A stretch of 64,000 nucleotides of DNA from an uncultured Spirochaetota bacterium. Its GTDB lineage: Bacteria > Spirochaetota > Brevinematia > Brevinematales > JAOACQ01. Below the pieces are notes generated by a model. That model was not told where the DNA came from. It ran no database searches and worked only from the letters and a program-made list of their open reading frames with translations. This document shows, one piece after another, positions 931 through 47,236 of this stretch; position 1 is the stretch's first letter; each line of letters opens with the position of its first letter. Position numbers and translations under genes: made by a program. The stretch is taken from the NCBI GenBank assembly GCA_963768055.1, contig CAVYGN010000002.1:1280001-1344000 (forward strand), written 5' to 3'.

Positions 931-2304
931 ATGGATGACGGCGTATTGGAAGATATCAAGAAGGAAAATTTAAATAAACGTATGAACTTCTTCATCGTGA
1001 TACAGAAGATGTTCAAGGGATATCCTATAGAAATCGGTTTTTTTGACTGCGCTTTTCAGCCCCTGGCTCCTACTTCATTTACTTCCGAAACGGCGAGGCT
1101 TATAGCAAACCTCAGCGGGCAGAAAAAACTGAACATTAAAAAAGATATGAACTACTATTATTTTTCAAAGGTGATATCGTCTGAAAATCTGCCGGCTGAA
1201 GATTTTCCCGACGGTTTTTTCCTTAAGGAATTTCCATCGGAGTTTTATGTCATCGGCAAGGTGGAACATGAAAGCGTTAAATTCGAATTTCTCTTTCGCA
1301 TAATTGAAATGATGGTTGAGATGAATATAAGGAATATCCAGGAACAGGGTATAGCTTCCGGCCTCTTCCGCCAGGCCCTTCAGAATACTATAGATGAATT
1401 GAAAAAATACAACGACAGGGAAATCGAACTTCGCACTTCTTTTCAAAAATATATCCCCGCCAGGGTAGTCAACGAGATCATGAGCAAAAATAAAAACGAT
1501 CTGATGAAGGGGCAGATCAGCGAAGTAACTATCCTGTTTACCGATATCAGAGGATTTTCCTCCCTGGCGGAAAAATATTCGACAGAAAATGTAGTTTCTA
1601 TGCTTAACGACTACTTTTCATTTATGATAGATATTGTGCTTGAAAACGGGGGGGATATATATAAATTCATGGGAGACGGGATGATGGCGGTTTTTGAAAG
1701 CGGAAAAGATAATGCGTTCAAGGCTTTGAATACTGCCCTGCAGATAAAAAAGGGACTGGTATCTTTTAATGATAAAAGGAAGAAGAACGATCAATTTCTA
1801 ATAAATATGGGGATCGGAATCCATACAGGAAAGGTTCTGATCGGAAATATCGGAAATGAAAAACGAAGCGATTATACCTTGATCGGGGATGCTGTAAACA
1901 TAGCGAGCAGGCTGGAAAACCTGACTATAAAATATAACGCCTTCCTGGTAATTACAGATACAACGTATAAATTGATCCAGGACAGGATTGTCGCGAGGGA
2001 ACTTGACAGTATCAGGCTCCGGGGCAGGAAATCCCCTCTCGTTATTTATGACGTCCTTGGTTACCAGGACGAGATCAATGACACGATCATTTCCGCTCTC
2101 AAGGAATATAACCAGGGCCTGATACAGTACAGGATAAAAAGATGGGAAGGCGCGATGGTCCATTTTAACAAAGTCTTGAGCTATTTGAACGAAGACGAAC
2201 CCTCGAATATCTACCTGAAACGCTGCACATTTTATTATTCGAACCCGCCGTCTGAAGAATGGGACGGCGTGATAGATTCGGAAAACCTGGGGTATGATTT
2301 TTAA
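931..2304 (+). CDS. Class III adenylate/guanylate cyclase with C-terminal TPR-like tail
   Basis: ILFTDIRGFS, KFMGDG, GIGIHTG, DYTLIGDAVNIASRLE motifs; C-terminal PP..WDGV; GGAGG RBS. Confidence 0.93.
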   Translation: MDDGVLEDIKKENLNKRMNFFIVIQKMFKGYPIEIGFFDCAFQPLAPTSFTSETARLIANLSGQKKLNIKKDMNYYYFSKVISSENLPAEDFPDGFFLKEFPSEFYVIGKVEHESVKFEFLFRIIEMMVEMNIRNIQEQGIASGLFRQALQNTIDELKKYNDREIELRTSFQKYIPARVVNEIMSKNKNDLMKGQISEVTILFTDIRGFSSLAEKYSTENVVSMLNDYFSFMIDIVLENGGDIYKFMGDGMMAVFESGKDNAFKALNTALQIKKGLVSFNDKRKKNDQFLINMGIGIHTGKVLIGNIGNEKRSDYTLIGDAVNIASRLENLTIKYNAFLVITDTTYKLIQDRIVARELDSIRLRGRKSPLVIYDVLGYQDEINDTIISALKEYNQGLIQYRIKRWEGAMVHFNKVLSYLNEDEPSNIYLKRCTFYYSNPPSEEWDGVIDSENLGYDF

Positions 2305-2307
2305 GCG

Positions 2308-2589
2308 TTCAAACAATATACTGAATTCTTTAGGAAACAATATTTTTATCGAGCAGTACTCGAATGCTTGAGCTGCAACGGCTCAAAACGGCAGCAAGCG
2401 TTGATTGAATGCTTTTTTATTAAAGAAATTTTTATCATCTGTATGAATAGATTAAATACAATGAACGGTCTCGGATAAACGCCTGCTTCGCCGTTTTTCG
2501 CCGGCAGCTCTTATACCCTCCGGGCACAAGCGCTCTTCGTAAGGCTCGATAAAAAAATTGTTTTCCACAAAATTTTATATTGTTTTGAA
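2308..2589. repeat. Long nested-hairpin intergenic element, copy 1
   Basis: Four nested inverted arms (ttcaaacaatata/tatattgttttgaa; ggaaacaatatttttatcgagc/gctcgataaaaaaattgttttcc; gagctgc/gcagctc; aaaacggcagcaagcgtt/aacgcctgcttcgccgtttt); homologous to 46901-47167. Confidence 0.85.
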
Positions 2590-2654
2590 TCGGCAGGAAT
2601 GGGGGGTCTCCGTAACTTCCCGTAAAACCTGTGTAAAATATTTTAATAAAATAC

Positions 2655-11226: not shown

Positions 11227-12564
11227 ATGAGGATCGCGCTTTTAACGTTATTTATGGTAACAGCCGCTGCAGCGGTTTTCCGTGGAGAAACGAACGGTTC
11301 CGGGGAAACGAACAATTCCGAGATCACATACAGCGCGAAGATATATAATACGGAGACCTTTTCATCCGTTAAAACTGTCCTTAACCCTGACGGGGTTCTT
11401 AATAATTACAGCAGCTTTCTTGCGGGCGGCCTTTCAGGGGAGGTCAAATACTATCTGGATTTCAGATGGAAATCGGACCCTTTTTCGTTCCAAGCCTCGG
11501 ATATAGGTTATCTTGATGCGGTTACGAATTCCGCTTTCACCAACCTCATGACCGAGGATTACCTTTCATTTAATTTCTGGGAAATTTTCCTGGACGCGGG
11601 CAAGAAAAAGATAACACAAAGCGTGTGTTTTCTCACCACACCCATCGATTTTGCGATTAACGGTTTCAACGATATTTCAAAGAATAAAAGCTACAACCTG
11701 CAATTTTCAGAAGGTAAATACATGGCCAACGCGGACTGGTTTTCAGATTTCGGGGTTATCGGGTTAAGTTATATGCCTGAGTTAGATTTTGCAACTAACG
11801 CTCAGCAGTATTTTTCAAGCTCCCAGATAGAACAGGAGGAATTCCGTTATACGGTCAATATATCGGGCGCAGATATGGGTTTAGCCCTTTCCCATGACAG
11901 CAACTGGCGCGCCGGGGCGAATTTCTCCGCAACGATCGGCGATTATGTCGAAGTCCATGCCGAGTGCGCCTACCTTGAATATATCCCGAGGTTCGGCCTT
12001 GGCACCAATATGACAGCTACCGGCTTCGACCCGGCGAGCATGCAGCCCATATATTCCCCTGAACTGACAATTACCCGGGAGAACGTCAGCAATGTTTACC
12101 AGATCATAGTGGGGGGGACTTACAACGGCGAGTATTTTTCATTGTATGTCGAGTATTATTACAATATGGCAGGGTACAATTACGCCCAATGGTCTAGCAT
12201 CAGGCAATCGATGAGAGACTTCAGGTCGGATTACTATAACAATTCTTCAGGGGTGCTCAATGCGGCGAATCTCGGCACCTTGATGAGTTTTATGGGAACT
12301 AATTCTTTTCTCGATGTCTGCCAGGATTACGCCATGATAAGGGTGACCACTCCGTCGGCTTCAACCGAGAAACTGGGGCTTGCATGGACCACCCTTGTGA
12401 ACCTCGAAGATTTAAGCGGGATGGAAATATTTTCAGCCTCTTACAGCTGGGACAATCTCTCATTGACCGGCCAATTCACATTTGATTTCGGGGACGATTA
12501 TTCCGAATTTAAACTATTGGGACAGGATTGGACCGCCGGCGTTGAAATTGAAATTGGAATTTAA
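11227..12564 (+). CDS. Putative outer-membrane beta-barrel protein
   Basis: Signal peptide, aromatic/Gly/Asn-rich amphipathic strands, EYYYN.AGY motif, terminal strand WTAGVEIEIGI; position after LolA-like gene. Confidence 0.65.
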   Translation: MRIALLTLFMVTAAAAVFRGETNGSGETNNSEITYSAKIYNTETFSSVKTVLNPDGVLNNYSSFLAGGLSGEVKYYLDFRWKSDPFSFQASDIGYLDAVTNSAFTNLMTEDYLSFNFWEIFLDAGKKKITQSVCFLTTPIDFAINGFNDISKNKSYNLQFSEGKYMANADWFSDFGVIGLSYMPELDFATNAQQYFSSSQIEQEEFRYTVNISGADMGLALSHDSNWRAGANFSATIGDYVEVHAECAYLEYIPRFGLGTNMTATGFDPASMQPIYSPELTITRENVSNVYQIIVGGTYNGEYFSLYVEYYYNMAGYNYAQWSSIRQSMRDFRSDYYNNSSGVLNAANLGTLMSFMGTNSFLDVCQDYAMIRVTTPSASTEKLGLAWTTLVNLEDLSGMEIFSASYSWDNLSLTGQFTFDFGDDYSEFKLLGQDWTAGVEIEIGI

Positions 12565-12590
12565 ATATCTCAAAGACTCTTATAAAAGAT

Positions 12591-12666
12591 AAGATAATTT
12601 TTTATCGCGCTGAATTTTGAAAGCGCTTGTGCCCGAAGGATATGTGCCCTAACGGTTCAAAACAAC
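12591..12666. repeat. Partial third copy of the long hairpin element
   Basis: aattttttatcgcgc...agcgcttgtgcccgaaggatat matches reverse complement of ~2513-2560; ttcaaaacaa terminal motif at 12656. Confidence 0.6.
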
Positions 12667-12698
12667 TGTCCTGCCCCTGAATCGGAGGAAAGTTTTTA

Positions 12699-45558: not shown

Positions 45559-46896
45559 ATGAAATTGCTTATTGTAGACGACAACGAAGATGTAATTTCA
45601 AGTTTAAAAGGCGTATTCGGAGAATATGATATAGTAGGGGCGGATTCAATAAAAAATGCGAAAAAGATACTGGCTCTGGATAGCGATTCAATCGATATAG
45701 CAGTCATAGATATGAAGCTCGGGGATGAGGATGGGATAGAGCTCCTGAATGATATAAAACTGAGGTTTCCATTCATCGAGTGTGTAATGATATCGGGTTA
45801 TTCCAGTGTTGAAAAAGCTGTACTTTCTATAAAAATGGGAGCCTTTGACTTCGTTGAGAAGCCGATATCCTATCAAAAAATGAAGGTGGTTATCAATAAT
45901 GCGATAGAACATAAAATGTTTTCTACTCTTTTAAAAAAAGAAATGGAAAGGTATAAAATCATAGGGGAATCAAGCGCTGTCAAAAAGATGAACGATTTGA
46001 TAGAAAAGGCTTCCCAGATCGATTTTCCCGTGCTTATTACCGGGGAAAGCGGGGTAGGCAAGGAGCATGTCGCCCATCTGATACACCTGAAGAGTAAACG
46101 AGGAAAAAATGAAATGATAAAGCAGAATTGTGCGGCTATCCCGGAAAATCTGTTTGAAAGCGAACTATTCGGGCATGAAAAAGGTGCTTTCACCGGCGCG
46201 GCTTCGGCAAGAAAAGGAAAACTGGAGCTTGCCAGCCTGGGCACTCTCTTCCTTGACGAAGTCGGAGATATGCCGCTTTCACAGCAGGCTAAACTTTTAA
46301 GGGTCCTGGAGGACAGGGAGATCACGCGTGTCGGGGGAGAATCTAAAATCAAGGTCGATTTCAGGCTTATCTGCGCGACCAACAGGAATCTGAAAGAAGC
46401 GGTTGACGAGAATAAATTCAGGGAGGATTTTTTTTACAGGATCGGGGTACTTGTTATCAATATACCGCCCCTCAGGGATAGGAAAGACGATATTAAAATT
46501 CTTGCCGACCATTTTTTAAAACAGGCCTGCATTGAAAATGGGTCCATTATGAAGACTATAAACAGCGAAGCTATGACGCTCATCTGCGAAATCCCCCTGA
46601 AGGGAAACATCAGGGAACTGAAGAATCTCATACAGAGGCTCTTCGCTTTTTCCGAGGTTGAAACAATACGCCCTGAGGATGTAAAGAATATCATGGTTTC
46701 ACAGAACAGGAACGGCGGCGACGCGATATTTCAAAAAACAATGAACTACAGTGAGGCGAAAAAACTCCTGGAAAAAAAATATATAATTACCCAGCTCTCT
46801 CTCAACAACAACAATGTCTCCCGCACAGCTATCCGTCTCGGCATATTGCCAAATAATCTTCTTAGAAAAATGAAAGACCTGGAAATCGTGCTGTGA
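45559..46896 (+). CDS. Sigma54-dependent response regulator (NtrC/NtrX-like)
   Basis: Receiver domain; GESGVGKE, ESELFGHEKGAFTGA, FLDEVGD, GNIRELKN; Fis HTH. Confidence 0.95.
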   Translation: MKLLIVDDNEDVISSLKGVFGEYDIVGADSIKNAKKILALDSDSIDIAVIDMKLGDEDGIELLNDIKLRFPFIECVMISGYSSVEKAVLSIKMGAFDFVEKPISYQKMKVVINNAIEHKMFSTLLKKEMERYKIIGESSAVKKMNDLIEKASQIDFPVLITGESGVGKEHVAHLIHLKSKRGKNEMIKQNCAAIPENLFESELFGHEKGAFTGAASARKGKLELASLGTLFLDEVGDMPLSQQAKLLRVLEDREITRVGGESKIKVDFRLICATNRNLKEAVDENKFREDFFYRIGVLVINIPPLRDRKDDIKILADHFLKQACIENGSIMKTINSEAMTLICEIPLKGNIRELKNLIQRLFAFSEVETIRPEDVKNIMVSQNRNGGDAIFQKTMNYSEAKKLLEKKYIITQLSLNNNNVSRTAIRLGILPNNLLRKMKDLEIVL

Positions 46897-46900
46897 GCCG

Positions 46901-47167
46901 TTCAAAACAACATCCAGCTTTTATGGAGTCAATATTTATCTCGCTGGATTCGAAAACTTGAACTGCATCATCTCAAAAAGGCGGCAAGCGTTTGATTGAA
47001 TACTTTTTTAAGTTAAGAATTTTTTTATTATCTACAAGAATTGGTTAAATGTTATAAATGATCTTGGGTGAAACGCTTGCTTCGCTTTTTTTCGATGGCA
47101 GTTCTACGTTTTCTTCATAAATGCGGGATAAAAATTGACTCCATAAACAACTACATATTGTTTTGAA
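46901..47167. repeat. Long nested-hairpin intergenic element, copy 2
   Basis: Arms ttcaaaacaa/ttgttttgaa; tttatggagtcaatatttatctcgc/gcgggataaaaattgactccataaa; gaactgc/gcagttc; aaaaaggcggcaagcgttt/aaacgcttgcttcgctttttt. Confidence 0.85.
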
Positions 47168-47190
47168 TCCGGCGGAAAGGTTAGGAGACT

Positions 47191-47236
47191 TGTCATTTCG
47201 AGCCCCTCAACGAAATGTTCGGCGACGAGAAATCTT
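47191..47236 (+). repeat. REP-like short repeat GTC(A/G)TTTCGAG...CGAGAAATCT
   Basis: Second copy at 51755-51786. Confidence 0.55.

Follow-up and report, generated by a model that had tools for sequence, protein, structure and literature searches.

A structured, possibly REPIN-like intergenic repeat of Brevinematales (Spirochaetota) with apparent relatives in other bacterial phyla

In the present study, we describe a gene-less intergenic repeat that occurs in many copies in an uncultured Brevinematales bacterium, is present or absent at corresponding sites of related genomes, keeps fixed loops within covarying stems, and is placed with a marked polarity relative to genes. On balance, we read it as a non-autonomous REPIN-like element that is copied as folded reverse-strand DNA and recognised by its loops and bulges. 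Judged from shared motifs and spacing, it also seems to represent the long form of a kind of repeat shared by several bacterial phyla. An initial annotation of the window (that is, the whole stretch of 64,000 nucleotides analysed here) had left the choice between a structured RNA and a MITE/REPIN-like element moving as ssDNA or RNA; our results favour the REPIN-like ssDNA branch, and the branch of an RNA from the upstream gene less.

Two copies in the window

The window belongs to a 3.69-Mb genome (G000; Brevinematales, Spirochaetota; 94.75% complete). The two hairpins proposed earlier, here called copies A and B (Table 1), are found where they had been placed, with all quoted words located in them, and their nested helices correspond to strong predicted folds. 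As RNA, copy A reaches -92 kcal/mol (z -6.87) and copy B -89.8 kcal/mol (z -9.18), with none of 200 shuffles equal in either case; the minus strand of copy A folded as DNA gives z -6.30. Besides its outer arms at 2308 and 2576-2589, copy A has the helices GGAAACAAT (2333) with ATTGTTTTCC (2557), GAGCTGC (2370) with GCAGCTC (2504), and AAAACGGC (2385) with GCCGTTTT (2490). The counterparts in copy B start at 46901 for the outer arm and at 46925/47134, 46960/47098 and 46975/47084 for the helices.

Both copies begin 3-4 nt after a stop codon (TAA 2302-2304 and TGA 46894-46896) in the orientation of the gene, as had been claimed. The accompanying link to signalling genes is a coincidence of these two copies and not general, since the 97 neighbouring proteins scanned across G000 are mostly housekeeping, have no common function and include no transposase. 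The response regulator upstream of copy B is also full length (445 aa) in relatives without the element. The half copy in the window is a weak match (E 0.003 for 12595-12669), and the TGTC/CGTC-tagged repeat behind copy B is part of that copy's insertion relative to the empty site. No Rfam model matched the window at gathering score; at seven loci only tRNAs passed, the best model overlapping the element being a miRNA at E 2. Around copy A, no terminator-like site was found and promoter-like sites were not in excess.

Table 1. Coordinates of the element copies, their parts and adjoining features in the window
Feature	Position	Strand	Remarks
Upstream host gene, adenylate/guanylate cyclase domain	931..2304	+	Stop adjoins copy A; context, outside the element
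Copy A: rod 2308-2589 plus short purine-rich tail	2305..2604	- (inferred folded strand)	Model R1, 168 bits
Outer left arm, copy A	2308..2341		Pairs with 2557-2589; subfamily-specific, missing from the relatives' older form
Inner left arm, copy A	2370..2400		GAGCTGC, 2-nt bulge, CGGC, conserved TC (2383-2384), AAAACGGC, AGCAAGCG
AT-rich centre, copy A	2401..2479		In relatives, long hairpin framed by AACTC and TCRRACA
Inner right arm, copy A	2480..2510		Conserved TC 2498-2499 opposite TC 2383-2384; tandem GA/GA on - strand
Extra module of ~16 nt, right arm, copy A	2514..2530		Complement in left arm of other copies (L035, L058)
Outer right arm, copy A	2557..2589		
Third, half copy (left arm only)	12565..12672	+	Directly after stop 12562-12564; weak match
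Upstream host gene, sigma-54 response regulator	45559..46896	+	Context; 445 aa
Copy B (rod 46901-47167)	46897..47181	-	Model R1, 183 bits
Separate TGTC/CGTC-tagged REP-like repeat	47192..47234	+	In 3' tail of copy B

The family in the host genome

Copies A and B are part of a larger set: an iterated profile search of G000 returned 74 matches at 52 loci, 37 of them longer than 200 nt, against none in the reversed genome. After exclusion of four of these 37 as truncated or damaged, the remaining 33 long copies were aligned. Their pairwise identity has a median of 65% and a maximum of 90%, a spread that tends to argue against a recent burst, and all but one fold at z below -3. The copies are mosaic, arms and core having been swapped; for example, three copies with a common variant centre have arms nearest to three different subfamilies. 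The arms are nested helices of ~95 nt with no short repeated unit, the outer arms vary by subfamily and species, and the AACTC side of the centre is missing from most copies. The 5' junctions are purine-rich (GGGCCG-like), and the 3' ends read AATYCGG followed by a GGAAAG-like sequence. The suggestion that TTCAAAACAA marks transposase-type ends was not supported, as the outer arm differs among subfamilies and is replaced by another 5' hairpin in relatives; no transposase sharing these ends was detected. Five alignments of filled with empty sites, the latter from other species, likewise show no target duplication.

Other small repeats accompany the element. The TGTC/CGTC-type REP-like repeat is a separate family of 45 copies in G000, with 15 cases at most 300 nt from the element, 13 of them on its 3' side. 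It carries GA/GA flanks on the strand as written, which is the opposite strand to that of the long element, and it occupies one site where a relative (G002) carries the long element. Short tandem 7-mers of the GACTATG/GACTGTC kind trail several copies in G000 and also trail a different hairpin repeat in G013 (L194, L202).

Filled and empty sites in relatives

The expected empty sites were found in relatives. Three sites of G000 (copy B, dnaN and flgG) are empty, each in two or three genomes of the same genus: that of copy B in G002 and G003, and the other two in G001-G003, with the genes there full length without the element. The copy B site holds an unrelated repeat in G004 and is non-syntenic in G001 and G005. 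Among the 30 copies of the relatives, six have both flanks syntenic in G000, where four of the sites are empty, one is filled and one is unclear. At a lipid A acyltransferase site the element is present in three species (G000, G001 and G003), each time in the local subtype, a pattern that also fits retention by the host. In contigs of related strains, no joint across copy A was found; in one of them the gene is present together with the left arm.

Upstream of the glycosyltransferase gene at the copy B site, G004 carries a CACAGATT-type repeat (L119) and G001 another hairpin (L116); the unrelated repeats there in other species suggest that this site is a hot spot for small repeats. The idea that the element creates stop codons was ruled out, since all three genes tested are full length in relatives lacking it.

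Placement relative to genes

Placement was counted with gene calls from a simple custom ORF caller. Of 60 intact 5' ends, 26 fall in the interval from -5 to +25 nt relative to a co-oriented stop (null 8%), and none of 43 3' ends lies that near a convergent stop; given this polar placement, the strand favoured for folding runs antisense to the gene upstream. Over a wider range, 31 of the 60 5' ends are at stops, 20 before divergent genes, five in tandem and four elsewhere, and a -35-like word accompanies seven of the 20 divergent cases (null 10.5%). Inverted pairs of elements stand 3'-to-3' at all six such loci in G000, as does a doublet in Variovorax. Strand use is not biased by replichore (21 vs 25, p 0.66). 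Among the neighbours are core genes such as dnaN, mreB and pheS, which stand in the same order in relatives that lack the element.

Two copies on the minus strand, C2:1719505 and C2:1724203 (L063), are the only ones in G000 with the 5' hairpin of the older form described below, and both lie at junctions of a polymorphic-toxin-like cassette array (DUF3467 and NADase_transloc domains). The same arrangement is seen in G003.

Covariation, fixed loops and the folded strand

To assess covariation, 21 sequences from four genomes (L078 and L079 being G002 copies) were aligned and trimmed, and a structure was drawn by hand from one alignment row because RNAalifold, run on the raw alignment of 33 copies, gave only 21 pairs owing to gaps. 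By statistics that ignore kinship, 27 of 41 pairs change on both sides, which none of 500 shuffles reached, and controls with slid partners gave 10-17 such pairs; the earlier proposal of selection on structure is thus borne out. The three inner helices are 89-92% paired and the two outer ones 52% in this alignment. Stronger evidence for structure than the pair count comes from the copies of G004 and G007, in which the stems are wholly different and the loops and bulges stay in the same places. In all, covarying stems with unpaired loops at constant positions are seen across six related genomes.

The inner loop is TC/TC in 17 of the 21 sequences. In 28 of 33 copies, C.T oppositions are more numerous than A.G on the plus strand. 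Read on the minus strand they are tandem GA/GA, a non-canonical motif that is stable in DNA as well as in RNA. The minus strand also folds better in 27 of the 33 copies as RNA and in 25 as DNA, and a bias of A.C over G.U is weak (16 vs 9 copies). Because the loops read GA/GA on it, we take the reverse strand to be the probable folded strand. Since only the strand opposite the upstream gene has purine-rich conserved loops, ssDNA is favoured over an RNA of that gene as the folded molecule.

Older and short forms beyond the genome

Model R1 matches six of 11 other genomes of the family (G001-G004, G007 and G009), none of 31 other genomes of the class, and none of 146 genomes outside the family in a phylum sample in which 15 candidates were scored per genome; the named relatives that carry the element are Brevinematales/Spirochaetota MAGs. 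In G003, G005, G007 and G009 an older form begins with a 5' hairpin (TTTCTTT..AAAGAAAG..AAGAAA) and carries, ~60 nt downstream, a core in which a hairpin is framed by AACTC and TCRRACA. The distance from hairpin to core is 58-62 nt at 11 of 13 Brevinematales loci and 65 and 69 nt at the others, the candidate at the model position having been taken at three loci with several. A pattern for the 5' hairpin has matches in 16 of the 401 Spirochaetota genomes searched (control 0), and at 21 loci outside the family selected by this hairpin the core follows downstream in six, compared with two of 1152 random windows. At five loci of other Spirochaetota (L178, L186, L191, L192, L195) the same 5' hairpin precedes different bodies without the AACTC core, and it may therefore be a module common to several repeat families.

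A short form with a 7-nt centre was found in Variovorax as an inverted doublet, in Ralstonia wenshanensis (13 matches, control 1), in Ilyobacter (15 matches, control 0), and in 96 viral stretches, 80 of which were examined. Of 58 distinct contexts in plasmids and viruses, the 5' hairpin is present in 26; the rod accompanies it in every one of these, and the spacing is 56-61 nt in 23 of them (null for the loose pattern 0.8%). Layout and spacing are common to Ralstonia, Variovorax, Ilyobacter and prophages. R1 gives no score to short forms, and kinship with other phyla therefore rests on motifs and spacing. A DNA search of plasmids with the long form, a search of phages with the short form, and a search of viral contigs with two strict patterns returned nothing, and the exact short core is present in one of 121 Spirochaetota genomes.

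The core motif at replication regions

Of the 80 viral loci examined, 35 come from one family of related prophages and have the core motif together with an O-like replication initiator gene. A further 11 are from Vibrio-type inoviruses that carry Zot or Rep_trans genes near the motif. Two lineages, rather than 46 independent events, account for these loci. At L301 the motif lies within the O-like replication gene, after tandem repeats. Bare cores at replication regions were seen at this locus and at L304, L317 and L366.

The 13-nt heart of the short-form core, ACTCGCTNCGCTC, is also carried by ColE1 at 1332-1344, where it reads GAGCG.AGCGAGT on the plus strand, the same sense as the inferred folded strand. 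It lies 141 nt downstream of a run that we take to be the ColE1 origin, in a segment that is presumably the primosome assembly site; the record leaves the site unannotated. The single-strand priming site of ColE1 is downstream of its origin. The full 19-nt core pattern has no match in ColE1 at up to three mismatches, the 13-nt heart has none in G000, where the long form has an AT-rich hairpin instead, and our literature search returned no paper on this. The core as a priming signal is thus a lead drawn from sequence comparison. A bolder proposal would be a pan-bacterial class folded as ssDNA (5' hairpin, 60-nt rod, AACTC-hairpin-TCRRACA core) whose core is a phage and ColE1 replication signal, which recruits the host priming machinery with no dedicated transposase, and which marks cassette capture in toxin arrays. 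We consider this proposal doubtful; if the core were a priming signal, intergenic repeats would be tied to phage and plasmid replication origins.

Search for a mobilising enzyme

G000, at its 94.75% completeness, contains no Y1 (PF01797), RVT_1 or IS110 match, and its best score for the integron integrase IntI (TIGR02249) is 88 bits against a cut-off of 265; the Y2 search gave no match there, and its control likewise gave none. Y1 genes occur in five of 11 relatives with a distribution that does not follow the element, and no R1 match lies beside the 11 Y1 loci of these five incomplete genomes. No transposase was found among 48 Ralstonia and Ilyobacter neighbours, no element adjoins a small GIY-YIG gene, and a 342-aa rve IS with 16 close copies in G000 is absent from the scanned neighbours of the element.

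The one enzyme gene repeatedly linked to the element is a 429-aa rve ORF, located ~120 nt downstream of it at three of four such loci in G003, where the 5' end of the element abuts Rhs-type fragments cut at different places. A weak remnant (the collapsed ORF start plus the right end; best E 0.01) lies directly 5' of the older-form copy C2:1724203 in G000. The protein scores below the IS3 and IS481 cut-offs, and its 29 homologues are named just as transposases; no viral relatives were found, and plasmids gave one match, in Leptospira. Within the family it occurs only in G003 and G006, the latter without an R1 match, and it may therefore be a passenger that targets hairpins. The rve family (L011, L017, L080-L105) has a hairpin-bearing right end without obvious terminal inverted repeats, and is present in 15 of 301 Spirochaetota genomes, often close to other hairpin repeats. 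In relatives, two other DDE genes and one tyrosine recombinase adjoin single copies. In G005, a divergent copy (L181 / L208) is situated upstream of the gene for an IntI/XerA-like tyrosine recombinase; this protein contains a SAM_4 domain and scores 170 against the integron integrase cut-off of 265.

Proposed mechanism and alternatives

In the REPIN-like reading, the repeat would move as a single folded DNA strand, the reverse one, and its fixed GA/GA loops and bulges would be read by an enzyme acting in trans. By analogy with REPINs, the mobiliser would be a ssDNA nicking enzyme, most likely of the HUH type. This enzyme has probably been lost from G000, and the copies would have recombined with one another afterwards; that near-identical copies are lacking is in keeping with such a loss.

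The recurrent rve ORF allows another explanation, which we regard as unlikely: the element could be either the left end of an IS3/IS481-like DDE (rve) element that builds polymorphic-toxin cassette arrays or a derivative of it without genes, with the dispersed copies as its non-autonomous progeny. The three G003 loci, with the 5' end against Rhs-type fragments, and the remnant at C2:1724203 speak for it, yet rve is confined to two genomes of the family whereas R1 also matches G000-G002, G004, G007 and G009. Furthermore, among 24 rve loci the element is upstream only at those of G003, the sides differ (remnant 5' in G000 vs ORF 3' in G003), and an IS that targets hairpins would produce the same picture, IS3-family elements being ones that target REPs. 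An attC-like recombination site for gene cassettes, with a bottom-strand fold and a tyrosine recombinase as reader, would account for the position after stops, the better fold of that strand, the location between cassettes in toxin arrays, and the G005 copy upstream of an IntI/XerA-like gene. This is very improbable, however, given core-gene neighbours (dnaN, mreB, pheS) in unchanged order in relatives lacking the element, no IntI over the cut-off in G000, the low score of the G005 protein, and arm ends without the RYYYAAC/GTTRRRY boxes that characterise attC.

We give little credence to a structured RNA, antisense or stand-alone, that is kept by the host at gene ends and spread by recombination. 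Tandem GA pairs would be stable in RNA too, and both the placement after stops and before divergent promoters (seven of 20 with a -35-like word, null 10.5%) and the fact that three species have kept an element at the lipid A acyltransferase gene would suit it; against this, the favoured strand is opposite to the upstream mRNA, Rfam gave no match, copy A has neither a terminator-like site nor a promoter excess around it, most sites are lineage-specific, and the neighbours are without a common function. It is quite improbable that the element is a neutral palindrome whose arms are matched by arm-to-arm copying and whose structure is unselected. Such correction can yield changes on both sides of a pair without selection, and the distances of the pairing inner arms do correlate best (rho 0.52), with the centre varying independently, but copying would also erase mismatches, and the loops and bulges have stayed while the stems of G004 and G007 turned over. 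The spacing near 60 nt across phyla is a further argument against neutrality.

Comparison with known systems

In the available text of two reports, REPINs with their RAYT transposases are non-coding, extragenic, multi-copy and hairpin-forming, and occur as inverted doublets, singlets, decayed halves and local clusters (Bertels & Rainey 2011, PMC3116915; PMC8049555). The present element is likewise non-coding, multi-copy, extragenic and hairpin-forming, with inverted doublets at six loci, singlets, decayed halves and local clusters. It differs in its length of ~280 nt with no short REP unit as two arms, in its one-way polarity and fixed GA/GA loops, and in that no RAYT/Y1 gene is present in G000 or beside the copies of relatives. 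REPs are described, in the text available to us, as 20-40 bp long with a GTAG or CGTC tag; both these and TIR families are palindromic and mostly downstream of coding regions, CGTC REPs have no known dedicated transposase, and some REPs accompany longer palindromes (Di Nocera 2013, PMC3733652). The element is similar to CGTC REPs in being palindromic and mostly downstream of coding regions, with a mobiliser not found in G000; unlike REPs, its ends carry neither tag.

ERIC/IRU and other TIR-MITEs are long imperfect intergenic palindromes of lineage-specific presence, as is the element. In contrast to TIR-MITEs of the ERIC or Correia type, its ends are not constant, no transposase is found among the 97 neighbours, no TA or other target duplication is seen (with empty sites from other species), and the conserved features are internal loops rather than termini. 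Sites of the attC type fold on the bottom strand, follow stop codons and conserve structure over sequence, and the element does the same; it is longer, flanks core genes, comes without IntI and lies outside cassette arrays at most loci, the toxin arrays being the exception. With the ColE1 priming site it has in common the 13-nt heart of the short-form core, but the 19-nt pattern is unmatched in ColE1, and an AT-rich hairpin replaces the heart in the long form of G000. By the features tested, the element is outside the REP/REPIN, TIR-MITE and attC families.

In the literature searched, with most subscription papers outside its range, no description or name for such a repeat class was found. Given how common the short form is, it may already have been published under another name, and such repeats may be listed in the supplements, which lie beyond the available text, of PMC3116915, PMC8049555 and PMC3733652. 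Even if the core is not a priming signal, this would still be a repeat class for which we found no description. REP-like repeats for which no transposase is known pose an open question, as the available text of Di Nocera 2013 (PMC3733652) states for CGTC REPs. The present element offers a tractable case, in that the stems turn over completely and yet the loop positions and the 60-nt spacing stay the same in Spirochaetota, Betaproteobacteria and Fusobacteriota, and these fixed loops and this spacing define what a binding protein must read.
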